Source: a virus. Taken from it: a DNA stretch of 19,147 nucleotides. Where the stretch lies: IMG/VR virus record IMGVR_UViG_3300045988_000798, positions 1 through 19,147 of that record, one strand, 5' to 3'. This document shows positions 2,299-15,078 of this stretch, one piece after another (position 1 is the stretch's first letter; each line of letters begins with the position of its first letter). A program made the translations under genes and the position numbers. The notes beneath the pieces are model-generated. The model was not told the origin of the DNA and made no database searches. It saw only the letters and a program-made list of their open reading frames with translations.

Positions 2299-2742
2299 AT
2301 GGAAAATGGGATGACCGAGAAACAAATGAAGTTTGCCGATGAGTACATCATCAGCCTAAATGCTTCGCAAGCGTATAAAAAGGCTTATCCTAATATTAAG
2401 AACAACGATGTTGCAAAGGCTAATGGAAGTAGACTGCTTGCAAAGGCTAACATCAAGGCTTATATAGACGAGCAACTTGAAAAGTTGAAGTCAGAACGTG
2501 TTGCGGATCAACAAGAGGTCATGGAATTTCTCACAGCCGTAATGCGTGGCGAGGTTGAAGAACCTCTGCTTGTCCTCGATGGTGAGGGTATGCAACGTAT
2601 TGCTCAAGCCAAACCAAACGTCGCTACACGTCGCGCTGCGGCAGTTGATATCGGAAAACGTTATAGAATGTGGACGGACAAGGTCGAAGCTGATGTAACG
2701 CAAGATATCAATATTAATGTCGGTGAATGGAATGACGATTAA
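2299..2742 (+). CDS. terS: Terminase small subunit (Terminase_2 type)
   Basis: MTEKQMKFADEYIISLNASQAYKKAYPNIKNNDVAKANGSRLLAKANIKAYI is the typical N-terminal HTH region of this family. The start is uncertain, either ATG 2299 or ATG 2311, with AGGAG at 2291-2295. The TTG at 2263 listed in the track lies inside the upstream hairpin and is unlikely. Confidence 0.85.
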   Translation: MENGMTEKQMKFADEYIISLNASQAYKKAYPNIKNNDVAKANGSRLLAKANIKAYIDEQLEKLKSERVADQQEVMEFLTAVMRGEVEEPLLVLDGEGMQRIAQAKPNVATRRAAAVDIGKRYRMWTDKVEADVTQDININVGEWNDD

Positions 2743-3997
2743 TCTTGATATCAACCCAAGTAGGGTGTTTAATCGGCATATCTATGAGCATTTGTTTGAT
2801 TATGACACGTTCACCGAGGTTCATTATGGCGGAGCATCAAGCGGTAAGAGTCATGGGGTTTTTCAGAAGATAGTCCTCAAAGCTCTTAAAAAGTGGGACA
2901 AGCCCCGCAAAATATTGATATTGCGAAAAGTAGGCTCTACGGTTCGTGACTCGGTATTTGCGGACGTGCAAGCAGCGTTGTCTTATTTCGGTGTGCTTAA
3001 TCTATGCAAGGTTAACATGAGCGCATTCCGAATCGAATTGCCAAACGGCGCTGAGCTGATTTTTAAAGGGATGGATAACCCAGAGAAGATTAAGTCTATC
3101 AAAGGTATTTCGGACGTGGTTATGGAAGAAGCGTCAGAATTTACGCTCGATGATTACACGCAGTTGACACTTCGTTTGAGGGATAAAGCTCACAAACAGA
3201 AACAAATCTATTTGATGTTTAACCCTGTTTCTAAAGCTAATTGGGTATATAATGCGTTCTTTGTGAAGAACCCTAAGAATACAGTGGTTTACCAAACAAC
3301 GTATAAGGATAATCGGTTCCTGGACGACTTGACTAAGGAGAATATCGAGGAGCTGGCAAACCGGAATGAAGCCTATTACAAAATCTATGCTCTGGGGGAA
3401 TTTGCAACACTCGACAAACTAGTTTTTCCGAAGTACGAAAAAAGATTGCTTAACAAGGACGAGCTTAAACAGTTGCCGTCCTTTTTTGGTCTGGACTTTG
3501 GGTTTACTAACGACCCTACGGCGTTTATGCATGTCAAAATAGACCGAGAGAACAAGCGGCTATATATCTTGGAGGAATACGTCAAGAAGGGGTTGCTTAA
3601 CAACCAAATAGCAGAAGCTATAACTAGCCTTGGCTATTCAAAAGAGGTGATTATGGCTGACTCAGCGGAGCAGAAGTCTATTGCTGAACTGCAAACACTA
3701 GGCTTGCGTCGGGCTATTCCAGTAGATAAGGGTAAAGGTTCGGTATTACAAGGGATTCAGTTCTTGCAGCAATTCGACATCATTGTCGACGAAAGGTGCG
3801 TCAAGACGATTGAGGAGCTTGAGAACTATACATGGCAGAAAGATAAACATACAAACGAGTACATCAACAAGCCGTGTGATAGTTACAACCACTGCATTGA
3901 CGCGATTAGATACGCACTGCAAAATCTTATCTTCGTCAAGGATAGACCGGACGTAGACGCTAAAATTAGACGGGTTAACAAACTGATAAGGAGATAG
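2717..3997 (+). CDS. terL: Terminase large subunit (PBSX/Terminase_3 type)
   Basis: 426 aa with a Walker A-like YGGASSGKSH motif and a C-terminal nuclease-like region (MADSAEQKSI...YNHCIDAIRY). It overlaps the end of terS. An alternative start is ATG 2732. Confidence 0.9.
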   Translation: MSVNGMTINLDINPSRVFNRHIYEHLFDYDTFTEVHYGGASSGKSHGVFQKIVLKALKKWDKPRKILILRKVGSTVRDSVFADVQAALSYFGVLNLCKVNMSAFRIELPNGAELIFKGMDNPEKIKSIKGISDVVMEEASEFTLDDYTQLTLRLRDKAHKQKQIYLMFNPVSKANWVYNAFFVKNPKNTVVYQTTYKDNRFLDDLTKENIEELANRNEAYYKIYALGEFATLDKLVFPKYEKRLLNKDELKQLPSFFGLDFGFTNDPTAFMHVKIDRENKRLYILEEYVKKGLLNNQIAEAITSLGYSKEVIMADSAEQKSIAELQTLGLRRAIPVDKGKGSVLQGIQFLQQFDIIVDERCVKTIEELENYTWQKDKHTNEYINKPCDSYNHCIDAIRYALQNLIFVKDRPDVDAKIRRVNKLIRR

Positions 3998-3998
3998 A

Positions 3999-5498
3999 AT
4001 GACGAATACAACACACAGTGCTGACGATATTCTGCATGAAGGGCAGTATATTCCTAGATCGTATCAATTCGAGCGAGACATGGAGCCGACTAGCTTACAG
4101 AAACGTGAAGATTTCCTTCGTTTTGCAAAAGAAGCTAACACGCACTTCATGGCTCAGTCAGCAGACGACCTAGTGGACACGTTCCAAGGACGTGAGAAGC
4201 TAGAGAAGATGGTAGCTCAGTTCCAAGATGAACAGATTGAGCGTTTGAACATCCTAGAGAGCTATTCAAACGGGAACAACTACACGATTCTAAATGGCCG
4301 TAAGCGATTGGAACCAGAGAAGGCTGATTACCGCATTAGGCACGACCTGGGCGGACAAGCTAGCCGTTTCTTTACCGGATATACAGTAGGTCAACCTATT
4401 TCAATCGGTGCTACTGACACTAACGGCGACTTGACAGCCATCGATGAATTCAACGCTTACAACGACATTGAAGCTCTTAATCGTGAGTTGGTTTATGACG
4501 CTTCACGCTTCGGACGAGCGTTTGAACTACACTATTATGATGAGTTTGGCAATCCCGCAGTGGTCTTGATTGACGCAAGGGAAATGTTCACTATTCGTAG
4601 CGCAGACGTTCGAAAGGATATCATCGCGGCTGTCCATTGTCCAGTGTATGACGGCGAGATGTTTGTCACAGTCTACACTGACAACAAGATTGTTAGTTAT
4701 GATCCAAACTGGCAGGAAATCGAACGCAAAGAGAACCCGTTCGGGATGGTGCCAGTGGTGGAGTGGCAGAATAACCGTGAGCGTTCGGGAGATTGGGAGA
4801 AAGGTATTCCAATCATTGACGCTTACGACGCAGCGGAATCTGACACGGCTAACTATATGTCAGACCTTAACGATGCCATGCTTGTTATCAAGGGAGACGT
4901 TGAAAGTACAGGGATGAATGCGTCTGACATTATGAAAATGAAACACGCTAACATGCTTGTTCTTGAAAGTGGTGTCGGTCACAACGGTCAACAAACGTCA
5001 CTAGACGCCGGCTATATCTATAAGCAATACGATGTCAGCGGTGTTGAAGCGTACAAATCACGTTTGATTAAAGACTTCTTCCGAATCGTTGGATTGCCTA
5101 ACTTGCAGGACGACTCGACATTCTCAGCTACGTCTGGGATTGCTATCCGCTACAAGCTGGTTGACTTGCAGCAAGTTACAGCCGTCAAACGTGGATTCTT
5201 TGTCAAGGCGCTCAGACGTCGCTATAAGCTACTTGAGTTACTGTCTAACAATCTCAAAGGTATCGAACCGGTGGATGCTGACATGTTGACATTCACGTTC
5301 CATGAGAACTTACCGACAGACGTATGGGCTGAGATTCAATCAGCTATCAATTCTGGAATGGAAATCTCACAAGAAACACTTATGGAATCAGCTAGCTTCA
5401 CTGATGCTCGAAAAGAAAAGAGCCGTTTGCTCAAAGAGGGCGGCGCTACTGATTTAGAAGTTAGTCAGATTGTAGGTACTGAGGATGATGACGAATAA
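3999..5498 (+). CDS. Portal protein (SPP1 gp6-like)
   Basis: 499 aa, immediately after terL, with an AAGGAG ribosome-binding site. Its size, acidic C-terminus and position are typical of SPP1-type portals. Confidence 0.85.
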   Translation: MTNTTHSADDILHEGQYIPRSYQFERDMEPTSLQKREDFLRFAKEANTHFMAQSADDLVDTFQGREKLEKMVAQFQDEQIERLNILESYSNGNNYTILNGRKRLEPEKADYRIRHDLGGQASRFFTGYTVGQPISIGATDTNGDLTAIDEFNAYNDIEALNRELVYDASRFGRAFELHYYDEFGNPAVVLIDAREMFTIRSADVRKDIIAAVHCPVYDGEMFVTVYTDNKIVSYDPNWQEIERKENPFGMVPVVEWQNNRERSGDWEKGIPIIDAYDAAESDTANYMSDLNDAMLVIKGDVESTGMNASDIMKMKHANMLVLESGVGHNGQQTSLDAGYIYKQYDVSGVEAYKSRLIKDFFRIVGLPNLQDDSTFSATSGIAIRYKLVDLQQVTAVKRGFFVKALRRRYKLLELLSNNLKGIEPVDADMLTFTFHENLPTDVWAEIQSAINSGMEISQETLMESASFTDARKEKSRLLKEGGATDLEVSQIVGTEDDDE

Positions 5499-7097: not shown

Positions 7098-8030
7098 ATG
7101 GCTCAACAAAAATTTAATCCAGACACAGTTCTATTGTCTGATTCTCTTGGGAAAGAGATTACGTCAGAACAAATCACTGATCTTTTCACCGACGAACTCG
7201 TTAAAACTTCAAAAGTTATTCAGCTTGGCCAAAAAGTTGAAATGGACGGCAAAATGGTCCGCAAAGGTGTTGAAGTTGGTCAATTGACAGACGCTTACTT
7301 TGTGGGTGAAGGTCAAAAAATTGGTACTGCAAAAGTACAAACTAAATCTTACGTTCTTGAATCTCGCAAATTGGCAGTTATCTTGCCGGTAACAGAAGAA
7401 GTCCTTAACTACACTTGGACTGATTTCTTCGAATCAATCAAGGATAAGATCGTTGACTTGTTCAACAAAAAAATCGACGGAGCAGCATTCCTTGGTTTGT
7501 ACAACAACCCATTCGGTGCCAACGTCTTGGCGTCTGCTAAACGTGCTCAAAACATCGTATCTGGGGACATCAACCTTAATAACATCTACGATGTTGAGGA
7601 TAAATCAGAAAAAGAACCTAACGCATTCGTAGGTCACCGCACTATCAACCGCACACTTCGTGGAATCGTCGACAATGTGAACGGCGGTCAACACATCTTC
7701 ACTAAACCAGCTAACCCTAACGCAATCGGTGAGCTTGATGGCCTTCCATATTCTCAACTTCAATTGCAAGATGGGCAAACTTACCCAGCAGGTACATTGA
7801 TCACTGGTAACTTCAATGGTTTGGTTTACGGTATTCCAAACGGCACTAACCTGCGTCTTAAAATCGCAGACCAAGCTACTTTGTCTAAAGTTCAAAATGA
7901 TGGCACACTTGATTCTGGTGACGTTCACTTGTTTGAACAAGACATGCAAGCACTTCGTGCAATCTTTGAAATTGCCGTAGCGATTCCAAACGACGAAGCA
8001 TTTGCAGCGATCCAACCAGTAGGAGTCTAG
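7098..8030 (+). CDS. Major capsid protein
   Basis: 310 aa with a strong AAAGGAG ribosome-binding site and biased, highly expressed-type codon use. It sits after the scaffold gene. Confidence 0.8.
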   Translation: MAQQKFNPDTVLLSDSLGKEITSEQITDLFTDELVKTSKVIQLGQKVEMDGKMVRKGVEVGQLTDAYFVGEGQKIGTAKVQTKSYVLESRKLAVILPVTEEVLNYTWTDFFESIKDKIVDLFNKKIDGAAFLGLYNNPFGANVLASAKRAQNIVSGDINLNNIYDVEDKSEKEPNAFVGHRTINRTLRGIVDNVNGGQHIFTKPANPNAIGELDGLPYSQLQLQDGQTYPAGTLITGNFNGLVYGIPNGTNLRLKIADQATLSKVQNDGTLDSGDVHLFEQDMQALRAIFEIAVAIPNDEAFAAIQPVGV

Positions 8031-9693: not shown

Positions 9694-10236
9694 ATGGCAG
9701 AACTTATTTTGGGGAAAGACCTAATGGTCTTCTTCCGTCGTGTCAAAGACCAGAAGACACAAGACGCTGCTAAGGTACGTTTCCAAACAGAACACACTAT
9801 CAATGCTGAAAAAGAGGTCGAAACTACCAAAACCAAAGACGGTGTAGTTAACTCTATCTCCGACGGGGAAGTGTCTGGGGAATTCGTATCACTTGCTTAT
9901 CGTGAAGATGGGACTACCACAGAAATGTGGCGTGAAATGCGTAAATGGTTCATCGCAGGCGACAAAGTAGAGTGCTGGCAAGTTGACCTTGCTTCCAAAC
10001 GCGCTTCTGGTGGCAAAGATGTCTATGACGTTGAATATTACCAAGGTTATCTTAAAAACTTTGAAATCGCAGCACCCGCTGACGACAAAGTTGAGCTTTC
10101 TTATGAAATGGCTATCGATGGCAACGGTATTATTTCTACTGATAGCTTGACAGAAGCTCAGAAGAAAGCAGTCGCAAGCGCTCAATACGACTACCACACT
10201 CTTGCTAAAGAAGACAGCCTAGTTTCATCTATCTAG
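9694..10236 (+). CDS. Major tail protein
   Basis: 180 aa with an AAGGAGG ribosome-binding site, followed by a strong terminator and then the chaperone pair and TMP. This is the canonical siphovirus order. Confidence 0.75.
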   Translation: MAELILGKDLMVFFRRVKDQKTQDAAKVRFQTEHTINAEKEVETTKTKDGVVNSISDGEVSGEFVSLAYREDGTTTEMWREMRKWFIAGDKVECWQVDLASKRASGGKDVYDVEYYQGYLKNFEIAAPADDKVELSYEMAIDGNGIISTDSLTEAQKKAVASAQYDYHTLAKEDSLVSSI

Positions 10237-10243
10237 TCTATTG

Positions 10244-10271
10244 CAGGGGCTTTGAGCCCTTGCTTTTTTTG
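10244..10271 (+). terminator. Rho-independent terminator after the major tail gene
   Basis: GCAGGGGCT (10244-10252) pairs with AGCCCTTGC (10256-10264), 9 bp including one G.U, with a 3-nt loop. TTTTTTT follows at 10265-10271. Confidence 0.75.
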
Positions 10272-10291
10272 TATAAAAGGAGAAATAAAAC

Positions 10292-10633
10292 ATGATTCTA
10301 TCTATCAACGGACGAGACTTTAATTTGATTTTCGGACTTGCATTTTTGCGTGAGATCAACAAATTGCACTCAGCAGAGCTTGAAGGCATGAAGACTGGCT
10401 ACGGGGCTATGACATTGATTTCAGCCGGTGTGGCTATCAATGACCCGCTAGCATTCGTGGATATCATCAAAGCTGGTACAATTACAGCGCCACAAAAGCC
10501 AAGTGATGCTGACATTGAAGCCTATCTTGCTGATTTGATTGACAAAGGTAAATACAAGGAGACAATCGACTCTATTATTGACGAGTTAAAAGCGTCATCC
10601 CTACTCAAACTCGCAATGAACGTTCAAGAGTAG
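10292..10633 (+). CDS. Tail assembly chaperone (gpG-like)
   Basis: 113 aa with an AAAGGAG ribosome-binding site. It lies between the major tail gene and TMP. Confidence 0.7.
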   Translation: MILSINGRDFNLIFGLAFLREINKLHSAELEGMKTGYGAMTLISAGVAINDPLAFVDIIKAGTITAPQKPSDADIEAYLADLIDKGKYKETIDSIIDELKASSLLKLAMNVQE

Positions 10634-11010
10634 GGCAAAGTCAACCAGATTATGATTTCAGCTATGACGACGCAATGGCCCTCTTGATTGCAAGGCACGG
10701 CATGAGCTACGTCGAAGCTGCCAGGACAACGCTTGTTGAGTTCGAGGTGTATAACACCGCCTACGCAATTAAACAAGAGGACATCCGCTTTAACGCAGCA
10801 ATTCAAGCATGGTATAACCAGACCGTGCAAGCTACCAAAGGCAAGGGCAAGAGTGTTCGCTCAGCTTACCGAACCTTTAATGAGTTCTACGACCATGAAA
10901 AAGAGTTCAGCAAGATATTTAAACCAGAGGACACTGTGCCAAGAAGTCGAGCGCTCTCGTTAGCTGATAAGAATAGGATCATTAATCAACAAAAGAAAGG
11001 GGGTAGTTAA
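10582..11010 (+). CDS. gpT-like -1 frame extension of the chaperone (probable frameshift fusion with 10292..)
   Basis: The -1 frame relative to 10292..10633 is open from 10582, just after the TGA at 10579-10581, through 11010. There is no Shine-Dalgarno sequence ahead of the listed ATG at 10675. The two frames overlap for 52 nt (10582-10633). Confidence 0.55.
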   Translation, partial: RVKSVIPTQTRNERSRVGQSQPDYDFSYDDAMALLIARHGMSYVEAARTTLVEFEVYNTAYAIKQEDIRFNAAIQAWYNQTVQATKGKGKSVRSAYRTFNEFYDHEKEFSKIFKPEDTVPRSRALSLADKNRIINQQKKGGS

Positions 11011-11654
11011 TGGGAGCATCTTTTGACGTTACAGCCATATTGCGTGCTAACTCAAGTGACTTCACCAATGGCGTCAATGCTGCTCGGTCTGCCCTTGCTG
11101 ATTTGAGAAATCAGTCTGGGGGCATGCTTGCTCAAGTTGGTAGCAGTTTAAAGTCAGTTGGTAGCGCCATGCAATCAGTCGGGGCTGGAATGACTACAGC
11201 TTTTACATTGCCGATGGTTGGAGGTTTGACAGCCGTAATCAAAGGCTATGCAGACCTTGAGCAATCGTTGGGTGGTGTTTCTACGCTGTTTAAACAGAAT
11301 GGGTCAAGCGTCAACACCCTTGCTAGAGACTACGGCATGACCAGGGAGCAAGCCCAAGCGCTCTACAATACAATGGATCGTGAGGGAACCAACGTCATTG
11401 AGAATGCCAACGGAGCCTATAGGACGGCTGGTGTGTCTGCTAACCGATACATGGAGCAGGTCACATCGTTCTCAGCTACCTTGCTACAAGGTCTAGGCGG
11501 AGACACTGCCAAGGCTGCGAAATACGGGGATAAAGCCCTTGTCCAAATGTCAGATAATGCGAACAAGTTCGGTACTAACATGACGGACATTCAAAACGCT
11601 TATCAAGGTTTCGCAAAAGATAACTATTCAATGCTGGATAACTTGAAACTCGGT
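11010..11654 (+). CDS. Tape measure protein, exon 1 (215 codons)
   Basis: An AAGGGGG ribosome-binding site precedes the start. The sequence ends in AYQGFAKDNYSMLDNLKLG, the first half of the conserved TMP motif MLDNLKLGYGGT. The remaining 20 codons of the listed ORF, up to the TAG at 11715, have no TMP-like continuation. Confidence 0.8.
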
Positions 11655-11939
11655 AGAAAAACCATAGCCGAGTATAAACCTAGTGGAAACGGTGAAACTC
11701 TACGCTATGTAGCGTAGACAATACCGTGCTAAGCAAGATTTAATCTTGAAAGTGTAACGACTATCGAAACAGAAGAAGCATCCGAAAGGGTGTTTTTTTA
11801 ATGGAGTAGAGTAGGCTCAAGCGAGCCGAAGCACTAGGATGTATTTAATACATAAGAGATAGTCTAATCTCTATGGCGACATAGAGCAGTCTTTAAAAGA
11901 CGGTTGTGATTTAGCGAATCACAGCGAATATGTACCGTG
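11655..11939 (+). ncRNA. Group I self-splicing intron, ORF-less, 285 nt
   Basis: P1: exon ACTCGGT (11648-11654) pairs with GCCGAGT (11667-11673), with a terminal U.G at the splice site. P10: ACCATA (11661-11666) pairs with exon 2 TATGGT (11940-11945). The last intron base is G (11939). A P7-like long-range pair joins GACTATC (11759-11765) to GATAGTC (11858-11864), resembling the R and S core consensus elements. There are at least 8 local hairpins, two with GNRA loops. Confidence 0.8.
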
Positions 11940-14264
11940 TATGGTGGTACCATGTCCGAAATGGTTCGTTTGGTCAATGAATCTGGTGTCTTAAATGGTG
12001 AATTTGAAGCCACAGCTGATAATATCCGTGACATTCCATTCCATACCTTGATTGATGCCATCGGCATTACTCAAGATAGGCTCGGTGTTACTGGAACGAC
12101 TGCCAAAGAAGCAAGTACAACCGTTTCAGGATCGTTCAATTCCATGAAAGCTGCCGCCGAGAACTTAGTGGCCGGCCTTGGTAATAACGAAGCTAATATC
12201 AAGCAGCTTATGGAAAACATGAAGCAGACTATCATCACGTTCAAGGATAATGTGGTGCGTGTTCTAGGGACTATCTGGGACAATCTGCCAGTGGACGGCT
12301 GGGTTAAATGGGCAGCGCTGATCATTGGAGTGGCGGGGCCTATTATTGCAATATTAGGAACCTTAATCATTTGGATCGGGAACGTTGTTTCAGCATTGAG
12401 CACAATCGGTGGAGCTATCAGCTCAGTAGTAGGGTTCTTTTCAAGCGGTTCTACCGCAGCTAGCGGTCTAGGTGCCGCTTTTAGCGGGCTATCAGCCGGG
12501 GCTCTTGCTGCTTTTGCCGGCATTGTTGCTGCAGTGGCTCTAGTTGGGGCTGCGCTCGTTGACTTATGGAACAATAACGAGAATTTCCGTGCACAAGTTA
12601 CGGCAATCTGGGAAACCATCAAGAGTGCAATCACTAGCGCTGTTCAAGCCATTGTGTCGTTCGTTATGTCAATTTGGGGGCAGTTGACTTCATTCTGGAA
12701 CGAAAACCACGCCTTGATTATGCAAACGGCGACAACTTACTGGAACATGTTTAAGGGTGTGATTGAAAATGTAATGAACGCTATCTTACCAGTGATTCAA
12801 ACTGGCTTGAATTTGCTTATTACATTGTTTTCTACATCTTGGCAACTTATTACCACTGTCATTTCCACGGCTCTTGAAATCGTGTTAAACATCATTAAGA
12901 TGGCTATGCAAATCTTACAAGGTGACTGGTCTGGAGCGTGGGAAACACTCAAGACTATCTTGTCTACTGTGTGGGAAGGTATCAAGTCTCTTGTTTCAAT
13001 CGGTATCAATGCTATTGGTCCGATTATCCAAGCGGGTATTCAATTCATTCTCGCTATCTGGAACGCAGCATGGGCATTGTTAGCTATTCCATTCCAAACG
13101 CTTTGGGCATTACTTCAACAAATCGCTGGCGGAGCTATGACTGCCATTAGCGGTGTGATTAGTGCCGGTATCGCCGTGATTCAATCCATTTGGTCAGCGG
13201 CGTGGACAGTTATCCAGACAGTTTTCTCGACAGTTTGGAATACAATCATGTCTATTCTGTCACCTATCATGGCCGGCATATCAAGCATTATTTCAAGCAC
13301 TTTGTCAGCTATTCAAGCGATTTGGAACGCTATCTGGACGGGGATTCAAGCTGTTTTGGCTGGTGTATTAGCTGCTATTGTCGGTTTGGTTACTGGTAAC
13401 TTCTCACAAGTTCAAGCGGCTATTTCGTCAATTATGTCAGCTATTCAAGCCACTATCAGTGCGATTTGGAACGCCATTTTGTCACTTATTAGTAGCGTAC
13501 TAAGTGCGATTGCTAGCACTGTATCAAGTACATGGGCATCTATCCAGTCAATCGTTTCAAGTGCTATGAGTTCCGTTCAGAGCATTATCAGCTCAGCTTG
13601 GAGTGCTGTTAGATCAGCAGTATCAAGTGCCATGAGCTCTATTCAGTCAGCTATCACTAGCGGATTTAGTGCCGTGGTATCAGCGGTAACAAGTGCCGGT
13701 CAGCGTATCATTTCAGCGGTCCGTTCAGCGTTCAGCGGTGCACTTAGTGCAGCCCGTGGATTCGTCGGGCAAGCTGCAAGCGTCGGTTCTCAATTGATTA
13801 GCGGTTTCGTTAGCGGGGTTACATCCGCAGCCGGCAAGCTGATTTCAGCAGTTAAAGGCGCGGTAAGTAATGCGATTAATGGAGCTAAAGCCTTGCTTGG
13901 TATCAAATCACCATCCCGTGTATTCCGTCAATTCGGTATCTACACGGATAAAGGTTTCATCATCGGTATTGCTAGCAAAGCGGACCAAGTAGCCCGTTCA
14001 ATGCGCTATATGGCCCAAGGAGCTATCGACGCATTCACTGGTCAAGATATCAACGGAGCCATCACTGATGAACTTGGTAGCATGGATGGTCAGTTAGGTC
14101 GTTTGGCAGGGTATGATCCATCAGTTTCGTTCAACGGCGGCAAGATGTCAGTTACTCAACAAGCAGCGAATATCGTACTTAAAATGGGCGATACGACTTA
14201 CAGAGCATTTACCGATGACATCACTAATGCTCAGTCAATGGAATTAATGCTTAATAACTATTAA
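11940..14264 (+). CDS. Tape measure protein, exon 2 (774 codons; spliced TMP about 989 aa)
   Basis: It begins YGGTMSEMVRLV, completing the conserved motif. It contains hydrophobic segments, long Ser/Ala/Ile-rich repeats and the C-terminal GIKSPSRVFRQFG motif typical of TMPs. It is in the same reading phase as exon 1, since the intron is 285 = 3 x 95 nt. Confidence 0.85.
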   Translation, partial: YGGTMSEMVRLVNESGVLNGEFEATADNIRDIPFHTLIDAIGITQDRLGVTGTTAKEASTTVSGSFNSMKAAAENLVAGLGNNEANIKQLMENMKQTIITFKDNVVRVLGTIWDNLPVDGWVKWAALIIGVAGPIIAILGTLIIWIGNVVSALSTIGGAISSVVGFFSSGSTAASGLGAAFSGLSAGALAAFAGIVAAVALVGAALVDLWNNNENFRAQVTAIWETIKSAITSAVQAIVSFVMSIWGQLTSFWNENHALIMQTATTYWNMFKGVIENVMNAILPVIQTGLNLLITLFSTSWQLITTVISTALEIVLNIIKMAMQILQGDWSGAWETLKTILSTVWEGIKSLVSIGINAIGPIIQAGIQFILAIWNAAWALLAIPFQTLWALLQQIAGGAMTAISGVISAGIAVIQSIWSAAWTVIQTVFSTVWNTIMSILSPIMAGISSIISSTLSAIQAIWNAIWTGIQAVLAGVLAAIVGLVTGNFSQVQAAISSIMSAIQATISAIWNAILSLISSVLSAIASTVSSTWASIQSIVSSAMSSVQSIISSAWSAVRSAVSSAMSSIQSAITSGFSAVVSAVTSAGQRIISAVRSAFSGALSAARGFVGQAASVGSQLISGFVSGVTSAAGKLISAVKGAVSNAINGAKALLGIKSPSRVFRQFGIYTDKGFIIGIASKADQVARSMRYMAQGAIDAFTGQDINGAITDELGSMDGQLGRLAGYDPSVSFNGGKMSVTQQAANIVLKMGDTTYRAFTDDITNAQSMELMLNNY

Positions 14265-14286: not shown

Positions 14287-15078
14287 ATGTATGATTATGC
14301 TTCATTGAAGCGCACGGAATCAACAGTGCTGCAAAGAGCACCGGTTGATAACATGCGTATCAACGGTACGCCTATAGAAGATATCATCCAAGGGTATCGA
14401 CAACTTACGGTCAAAGGTCGTTCATTGCTCAATCGTGAAATTTCAACTACTCGTGTTCCTGGACGCCGTGGTGTCTGGGTGGACAGCGTCAATGACTCAG
14501 AGCGTGAGATTGAAGTTAAGTATCAGTTAACGACAGTCACCAGCCAAGTCATGAGGACCTCTTTCCGAGAGCTTAACCGCATCTTGAGAGAAGTAGGGCC
14601 TAGCGGTTATCTTGAAGTTACGTTTGACGATGAGCCAGATTTCACTTATTACGCCATCTTTAAGGAAGCGGATGAAGTGGAGGAAGATAGACTTTCGATT
14701 GTTAGCAGCTTTGTATTGTTAGTGCCAGACGGCTATAAAAAACGGGTTCCAGAGCGTTCTAATGGCGTTGTTTACCTTACATACGCTAAGAAGGTAATAC
14801 CTGAGAAGATTGTAGCCATGACATCGACAACGGCAACAGAATTCGAAATCATCAACGGTCAAACCAAGCTATCGTTTAAGGGTAGTTATGCAGCTAATAA
14901 GGAAATTGTCATTAAATTTGGCGACGAAGAAGTGACTGCTACTTATGATGGTCGTAATATCCTAAGTGAATTGCAGCGATTTAGCCCACTTGAGCAGTTT
15001 TTTGTCAAAGACGGGGACCGATTGGCTGGTAAAAACGTGACTATTCGGGAAGTGCAGTGGAGGGATGAAAGTCTATGA
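14287..15078 (+). CDS. Distal tail protein (Dit; siphovirus tail component family)
   Basis: 263 aa directly after TMP with an AAAGAGG ribosome-binding site. The N-terminal region resembles the phage tail component N-terminal domain. Confidence 0.75.
   Translation: MYDYASLKRTESTVLQRAPVDNMRINGTPIEDIIQGYRQLTVKGRSLLNREISTTRVPGRRGVWVDSVNDSEREIEVKYQLTTVTSQVMRTSFRELNRILREVGPSGYLEVTFDDEPDFTYYAIFKEADEVEEDRLSIVSSFVLLVPDGYKKRVPERSNGVVYLTYAKKVIPEKIVAMTSTTATEFEIINGQTKLSFKGSYAANKEIVIKFGDEEVTATYDGRNILSELQRFSPLEQFFVKDGDRLAGKNVTIREVQWRDESL

Follow-up and report, generated by a model that had tools for sequence, protein, structure and literature searches.

The DNA under study is the 19,147-nt IMG/VR record IMGVR_UViG_3300045988_000798, termed here the window and numbered from position 1, and its gene context is that of a standard siphovirus late operon. 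The terS (2263-2742) and terL (2717-3997) genes, the latter uninterrupted, are accompanied by genes for an SPP1-type portal (3999-5498), a capsid protein (7098-8030), a tail tube protein (9694-10236) and a tail assembly chaperone (TAC; 10292-10633, Phage_TAC_12). The operon continues in the order TAC, TMP, Dit, with a split tape measure protein (TMP) gene at 11010-14264, a gene for a Dit-like Sipho_tail protein at 14287-15078 and, from about position 15075, an ORF that exceeds 1350 aa and encodes a Prophage_tail domain. The ORF that follows the chaperone gene (10582-11010 region) lies in the -1 frame, is open from 10582 and overlaps the chaperone end by about 50 nt; such an overlapping -1-frame layout after the TAC is the usual one for a programmed frameshift upstream of TMP genes, and no slippery site was identified at the overlap between the chaperone and the downstream ORF (10292-11010). 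Directly 3′ of the tail tube gene, at 10243-10263, sits a terminator-like hairpin with a T-run, GCAGGGGCTTTGAGCCCTTGC, the only terminator-like site that a terminator scan found within 10200-12500. Upstream of terS, positions 1620-2279 share 81-86% DNA identity with many Streptococcus thermophilus phages (TP-J34, 2972, 858 and the CHPC series), in which this region is annotated as a late transcriptional activator; it is one of few such stretches, the remaining structural module being without a close GenBank phage match.

On the same strand, the ORF list places 11010..11717 (235 aa) and 11937..14264 (775 aa, GTG start) where the original prediction had seen a single TMP gene broken in two, and both ORFs are present as described. 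Exon 1 (11010..11654, + strand) comprises 215 codons ending in ...LDNLKLG and is supported by the ORF list, PHROG and tblastn to annotated TMPs, while exon 2 (11940..14264, + strand) comprises 774 codons plus the stop and starts with YGGTMSEM... On the DNA, exon 1 ends in ...AACTTGAAACTCGGT, with t11654 as its last base, and exon 2 begins at 11940 with TATGGTGGTACC. Joining 11654 to 11940 in silico yields a single in-frame ORF of 989 aa that reads ...YSMLDNLKLGYGGTMSEMV...; the predicted junction in the spliced RNA is ...AAACTCGGT|TATGGTGGT..., and the predicted junction-spanning peptide of the spliced TMP is LGYGGTMSEMVR. With the spliced TMP, Pfam gave only a sub-threshold Baculo_PEP_C match, and the protein owes its name to PHROGs and tblastn. 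Its match to PHROG phrog_58, 'tail length tape measure protein' (E = 8e-130), is one stretch, aa 12-641, running across the junction at aa 215. Searching with a 229-aa junction-spanning query, tblastn finds uninterrupted single-piece homologues in 365 phage records at a query coverage of at least 80%. The intron-less TMP gene of Javan85 reads ...DNYTMLDNLKLG|YGGTQSEMARLVNES and is colinear with the spliced window product (DNA across the uninterrupted site, ...FAKDNYTMLDNLKLG|YGGTQSEMARLVNES; site sequence, AACTTGAAACTTGGT|TACGGTGGTACA), and that of S. thermophilus phage D4446 reads ...LDNLKLG|YGGTKEEM. Relative to both, the spliced window TMP has gained or lost zero codons at the junction, which is the colinearity across LKLG|YGGT that had been proposed as a check on the 989-aa protein.

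Might the TMP nevertheless be truly split into independently translated proteins of 235 and 775 aa, with the spacer serving as a structured non-intron RNA or regulatory element? Gene callers and several GenBank records do annotate two CDSs, and PHROG phrog_6900 (235 positions) matches aa 19-256 of the spliced protein. However, the tail of the exon 1 ORF (11655-11717) runs through helices P1-P5 of the intron described below and has no protein homology, the GTG start of the second ORF lies inside that intron, and the exon ends abut exactly, at codon resolution, when set against uninterrupted homologues. Moreover, none of the elements that define a group I intron is missing from the spacer, and the intron of Lactococcus phage r1t is its homologue. 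We regard two independently translated proteins as very improbable here and proceed with a single, spliced TMP. It is only because the gene was called in two parts that a GTG start is annotated at 11937, and the annotation should be corrected by joining 11010..11654 and 11940..14264 as one TMP CDS; the same split is present in many GenBank and IMG/VR records. The length of phrog_6900 ('tape measure', 235 positions) equals that of the 235-aa unspliced exon 1 ORF, and this suggests that mis-annotated exon 1 fragments, taken from intron-containing TMP genes, went into building the PHROG.

The 285 nt between the exons (11655..11939, + strand) have the anatomy of a group I intron of an IA-like subgroup with no internal ORF. 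An Rfam scan of the whole window returned exactly one match, RF00028 at 11620-11886 on the + strand (53.0 bits, E = 3.7e-11), which takes in model positions 1-253 and is thus full-length; the covariance-model check proposed with the original prediction therefore comes out positive, 3 bits above the gathering score of 50 bits. The near-identical copy on IMG/VR contig L012 scores 58.9 bits. The r1t, L119, L059 and Javan271 copies fall below the RF00028 gathering threshold, and the Rfam score alone is therefore a poor membership test for the r1t-type family.

All elements of the intron lie on the + strand. The last 7 nt of exon 1 (11648..11654, ACTCGGT) provide the 5′ strand of P1, and the internal guide sequence (11661..11673) consists of ACCATA, the P10 strand, followed by GCCGAGT, the P1 3′ strand (11667-11673). 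P1 has 7 bp, its terminal pair being the U.G wobble U11654.G11667 at the 5′ splice site. ACCATA (11661-11666) pairs with the first 6 nt of exon 2, TATGGT (11940-11945), giving a P10 of 6 bp, and the intron-terminal omega-G is G11939. This guide sequence with its wobble, the P10 pairing and the final G had all been anticipated, as had two further features: a GACTATC/GATAGTC pairing, which is found at 11759-11765 with 11858-11864 and forms P7, the presumed guanosine-binding helix; and hairpins with GAAA and GCGA tetraloops, the former capping P7.1 (11772-83 with 11788-99) and the latter P9 (11869-75 with 11880-86). The 5′ strand of P3 (11679..11685) pairs with its 3′ strand at 11832-38. P4 (11689-94 with 11722-27) encloses P5 (11699-705 with 11712-18) and is followed by P6 (11728-30 with 11751-53) and by the P6a hairpin (11734-39 with 11743-48), which reads CAAGAT-TTA-ATCTTG and has a 3-nt TTA loop. 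P7.2 (11814-18 with 11823-27), the P8 hairpin (11839-44 with 11848-53), P9.1 (11889-92 with 11898-901) and P9.2 (11904-11 with 11917-24) complete the set of 14 helices, each of which is fully paired in the window copy. No ORF of at least 40 aa lies on the + strand within 11718-11936, and an endonuclease-sized ORF is absent from the intron, in agreement with the earlier view that the insert is too small to encode a homing endonuclease.

Michel and Westhof reportedly defined subgroup IA, in 1990, by two additional helices, P7.1 and P7.2, which come after the P7 5′ strand and before the P3 3′ strand. Because the predicted structure has P7.1 and P7.2 in that place and no P2, the window intron would belong to subgroup IA (IA2-like). 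The P7.1 hairpin and its U-run (11772-11799) were also considered as an intrinsic terminator and rejected, as the terminator scan made no call there and the U-run is base-paired with covariation.

Folded as a single sequence, the insert reaches -98.4 kcal/mol (z = -7.4), a value that 0 of 100 dinucleotide shuffles match, and the minimum-energy fold recovers P3, P4, P5, P6a, P7.1, P7.2, P8, P9, P9.1, P9.2 and P10. Could an AT-rich intergenic spacer resemble a group I intron by chance? Only the modest Rfam margin speaks for this, and against it stand the RF00028 E-value, the fold z-score and the existence of more than 110 homologous copies at one site that carry compensatory substitutions. We give a chance resemblance practically no credence and consider it ruled out by the Rfam E-value, the covariation and the z-score.

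The covariation was measured on 60 introns, 47 distinct ORF-less copies and 13 diverse ORF-trimmed ones. Standard pairs fill 95.5% of the 5263 cells, compared with 35-46% in controls that shift the 3′ partners by 1-3 columns; the tested structure was written from the window sequence, itself a member of the alignment, which inflates this share of paired cells and leaves the counts of compensatory pair types unaffected. Compensatory changes, on both sides of the pair, occur in 52 of the 91 pairs, and 0 of 500 shuffles reach any of the observed covariation measures. Such substitutions are found in P1, P3, P4, P5, P6, P6a, P7.1, P7.2, P8, P9, P9.1 and P9.2. In P1 the splice-site U.G pair is present in 60/60 copies, pair 4 covaries as C-G, G-C or A-U, and one pair is compensated in 10 sequences. 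P3, with 99.5% of its cells paired, has two pairs with compensatory changes; P4 (99.7% paired) changes from G-C to A-U in 15 sequences; and the third pair of P6 is U-A, C-G or G-C. All six pairs covary in P6a and again in P8, and compensatory changes affect 9 of the 12 P7.1 pairs and all five P7.2 pairs. P7 is intact and covariation is silent there, six of its seven pairs being invariant in the 60 copies. P10 is 80-92% paired across the family, and the invariance of omega-G in this sample is partly imposed by the extraction pattern.

The insert belongs to a family. When it was used alone (285 nt) as a blastn query against phages, full-length ORF-less matches appeared in Streptococcus phages 33888 and IPP23 (88%) and MissG1 (85%, annotated as ncRNA), together with an ORF-less copy in Javan271 (72% identical to the window intron) and copies whose two halves flank an HNH gene, in Lactococcus phages r1t, 28201, 50901, 62501 and proPhi7 and in S. 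pyogenes phage Javan520. In every matched record examined the element lies in the TMP gene. The flanks of these phage copies, 5′ ...AA(A/G)CT(C/G)GGT and 3′ TA(T/C)GG(T/C)GG, correspond to the codon boundary LKLG|YGG, and the insertion site is identical in the window, r1t, proPhi7, Javan520, Javan271, IPP23, 33888 and MissG1. The eight copies compared have an identical 20-nt stretch, made up of J6/7 and the P7 5′ strand. The exact motif recurs in 108 IMG/VR viral contigs and in the genomes of 15 GTDB species (131 loci), the latter including Streptococcus infantis, S. oralis, other Streptococcus species and Desemzia, as well as MAGs of Clostridiaceae, Oscillospiraceae, Anaerococcus and Tenericutes. 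The 5′ context is that of a TMP gene in 117 of the 131 motif-bearing copies. Among the 110 complete copies, 58 are ORF-less (269-341 nt), 49 have an ORF of 120 aa or more and three are intermediate; as about half of the family (58/110 complete) is ORF-less, the HNH gene defines the full-length form and not the family. Against GenBank phages, the megablast matches of the TMP region are confined to the intron and some 60-100 nt of the exon upstream, so that the intron is spread more widely than the gene that hosts it.

The closest point of reference in the literature is Lactococcus phage r1t. In their 1996 abstract, van Sinderen et al. (Mol Microbiol 19:1343) reportedly state that one r1t ORF seems to be located inside a self-splicing group I intron. 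A later paper names r1t as one of the phages that have group I introns and cites the 1996 work for it (PMC4177764). The attribution of the r1t intron rests on this abstract, on the secondary citation and on the GenBank annotation. In r1t (ORF40 / ORF41 HNH / ORF42) the TMP gene is interrupted at the same codon boundary as in the window, ...LDNLKLG|YGG..., and the insertion site that the original prediction had left open is the r1t ORF40|ORF42 site. The two cores are about 75% identical over the aligned parts, and P1, P3-P9.2, P7.1 and P7.2 are found in both. However, the r1t intron is 928 nt long and has a 186-aa HNH_3/NUMOD4 gene in the P6a loop, whereas that of the window has 285 nt and a loop of 3 nt; a compensated pair sets the two P1 helices apart (CUCGGU/GCCGAG in the window versus CUGGGU/GCUCAG in r1t); and the host genus is Lactococcus for r1t and Streptococcus for the window. 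Nearer in sequence are IPP23 (KY065464), 33888 (MK044828) and MissG1 (OL774877), whose introns occupy the window's site with 85-88% identity over the full 285 nt and are likewise ORF-less (275-277 nt). Their TMP exons are too diverged from those of the window for megablast beyond about 100 nt, and in IPP23 and 33888, unlike the window, P7.1 is truncated. A literature search found no paper that discusses the IPP23, 33888 or MissG1 copies, a Streptococcus TMP intron or the MissG1 ncRNA. The TMP intron and its insertion site are thus already known, and the window copy adds one more member to a well-populated family.

The RF00028 match, the colinear spliced product, the covariation across 60 introns and the homology to r1t at an identical site together bear out the compact, ORF-less group I intron of the original prediction, and we are highly confident that 11655-11939 is a genuine intron of the r1t type in the TMP gene of a Streptococcus siphophage or prophage. 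From standard group I chemistry we infer how an element with this anatomy, homology, covariation and pair of in-frame, colinear exons would splice. In the late transcript, the RNA would fold into its P3-P9 core, and the guide sequence would pair with the last 7 nt of exon 1 to form P1 with the U.G at U11654. An exogenous guanosine bound in P7 would then attack the 5′ splice site after U11654. With exon 2 aligned by P10, omega-G11939 would take the G site in place of the cofactor, and the exons would ligate into an mRNA that encodes the single 989-aa TMP.

Two intron substitutions are unique to the window among the 60 copies, at 11686 and 11833. At the first, position 1 of J3/4, with a conservation of at least 90% among the copies, the window has G where the other 59 copies have A, and G11686 could weaken J3/4-P6 contacts. 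At the second, in the P3 3′ strand, A11833 replaces G and turns a U.G pair into U-A. The change at this conserved J3/4 position is one reason to ask if the window holds a decayed, splicing-dead relic in a defective prophage, its TMP effectively a pseudogene that yields fragments only. The marginal Rfam score and the loss of the endonuclease gene from the intron point the same way, and the window may indeed be a defective prophage, no longer under selection to splice. Yet all of the window's helices remain fully paired, the change at 11833 strengthens P3, both exons are intact, in frame and visibly constrained, and phage contigs 88-94% identical to the window keep the intron with its core helices conserved. 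A dead relic thus appears improbable to us, and the window allele of the r1t-type intron is, judging from its sequence, likely competent to splice.

How did the window copy come to be ORF-less? In sibling introns the P6a loop, 3 nt in the window, is the site of a 186-187-aa HNH endonuclease gene, and the r1t ORF41 HNH protein carries HNH_3 and NUMOD4 domains. The nearest ORF-bearing core, L119, comes from a Streptococcus sp. genome; it is 95.3% identical and has the same P6a stem. Within the 887-nt L119 intron, a 187-aa HNH ORF at offsets 145-709 starts in the P6a loop, where it is preceded by an extended -10-like TGTATGATAAAAT and an RBS-like sequence, and ends in ...SKILKV*, with its TAA within GTGTAACG. 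The 3′ end of the L119 ORF overlaps the 3′ strands of P6a and P6 and J6/7; as the ORF ends inside the ribozyme core, its last codons double as these same elements. Across the family, ORF-less and ORF-bearing cores are interleaved, and some copies retain pieces of the gene. L072 (341 nt), whose core is 100% identical to that of ORF-bearing L032, keeps a remnant of the ORF 3′ end; L013 (407 nt) keeps about 130 nt of the ORF, and L015 and L017 about 20 nt, and other ORF-less copies have quite different short P6a hairpins. The interleaving, the remnants and the differing hairpins point to several independent endonuclease deletions in the family as a probable history. The window copy is most likely one such deletion derivative, a direction of change that we infer from these relatives; the alternative is that its ORF-less state is ancestral.

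Encoding no endonuclease, the window intron lacks autonomous homing. The ORF-less form may persist through vertical inheritance, through ordinary recombination or through recombination with an endonuclease supplied in trans, and the presence of the intron would aid its own persistence by destroying the presumed HNH target site. Eight IMG/VR contigs (L012, L025, L063, L064, L074, L083, L091 and L103) align with the window over up to 15 kb at 88-94% identity, and all eight carry the intron, that of L091 containing the very start of the contig. Between 11413 and 12319 the window differs from L012 and L063 by three mismatches (11686, 11833 and 11965), with 99.7% identity to L012, and the flanks of this block diverge by about 7-9% from the same contigs (background identity about 92%). 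The block diverges normally from L025 and L064, and its near-identity to L012 and L063 therefore reflects recent exchange, not constraint. A second near-identical block, with about three mismatches to L012/L063, covers about 13170-14104 in TMP exon 2. The roughly 900-bp intron-centred tract was considered as proof of homing and was downgraded on account of this similar tract about 1.2 kb downstream in exon 2. Since that second tract lies away from the intron, mosaic recombination explains the first as well as homing co-conversion does. Both blocks of about 900 bp are recent recombination patches, and are possibly related to homing.

More tentatively, and with the balance leaning somewhat against it, the ORF-less intron may still be exchanged among co-circulating Streptococcus phages, for example by way of an HNH endonuclease that ORF-bearing siblings provide and that acts in trans, cutting intron-less TMP genes, with co-conversion of the flanking exon sequence. 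If this were true, the LKLG|YGG site would offer a natural, densely sampled cycle of invasion, endonuclease loss and re-invasion, an example that would draw on over 110 copies, on ORF deletions that arose independently several times and on the terL siblings of the intron. The family picture, with one TMP site, about half of the copies without HNH through different deletions, and terL siblings, is possible material for work on the homing cycle and brings no new principle.

A parallel exists in another gene of the same host genus. In the S. thermophilus lysin gene, as described in two citing papers, ORF-bearing full-length and shorter ORF-deleted forms of a group IA intron coexist (Foley et al. 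2000, J Virol 74:611, cited in PMC5601072 and PMC3952083). By these citing descriptions, that intron resembles the window's in its Streptococcus host, its group IA class and its known endonuclease-deleted derivatives, and differs in its host gene (lysin) and insertion site. TMP genes themselves harbour group I introns in B. cereus-group prophages (IVS1-3; PMC2504315), in Cluster J mycobacteriophages (PMC3706429) and in ICP1, where splicing was shown by RNA-seq and RT-PCR and the TMP gene was called a 'frequently interrupted gene' (PMC10448857). Like the window's, these are group I introns (IA1 or IA2), some without a complete endonuclease gene, and they target the most conserved TMP stretch; their phage lineages are unlike that of the window, and blastn with the 285-nt insert finds no detectable DNA similarity to the B. 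cereus, ICP1 or Cluster J introns.

The 20-nt core motif also occurs in introns that interrupt terL, at loci L029, L059, L090, L065, L132, L018 and L014, the last being Lactobacillus phage LL-H. The terL break falls after TerL residue ~120 in L059, L029 and L090 and near ~172 in L065, L132 and L018, and the L059 TerL is 81-85% identical to that of the window. Mikkonen and Alatossava are said to have described the group I intron in LL-H terL in 1995. This intron and its IMG/VR terL relatives have the exact 20-nt J6/7-P7 motif in common with the window, and the LL-H copy is about 78% identical to the window from P7 to P7.2; its host, however, is the large terminase gene, and both its guide sequence and its exon context differ from the window's.

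The Javan271 record (L004) apparently holds two tandem TMP introns, at about 2082-2971 and 2994-3291. The upstream element, of about 890 nt with an HNH gene (CDS 2396-2908) and P7-like motifs, is apparently inserted between ...AATTTTACGAT and GTTAGATAAC. Only the downstream intron is picked up by Rfam at E <= 0.01 (43 bits), and a mini-exon of about 23 nt separates the upstream element from this ORF-less r1t-type intron.
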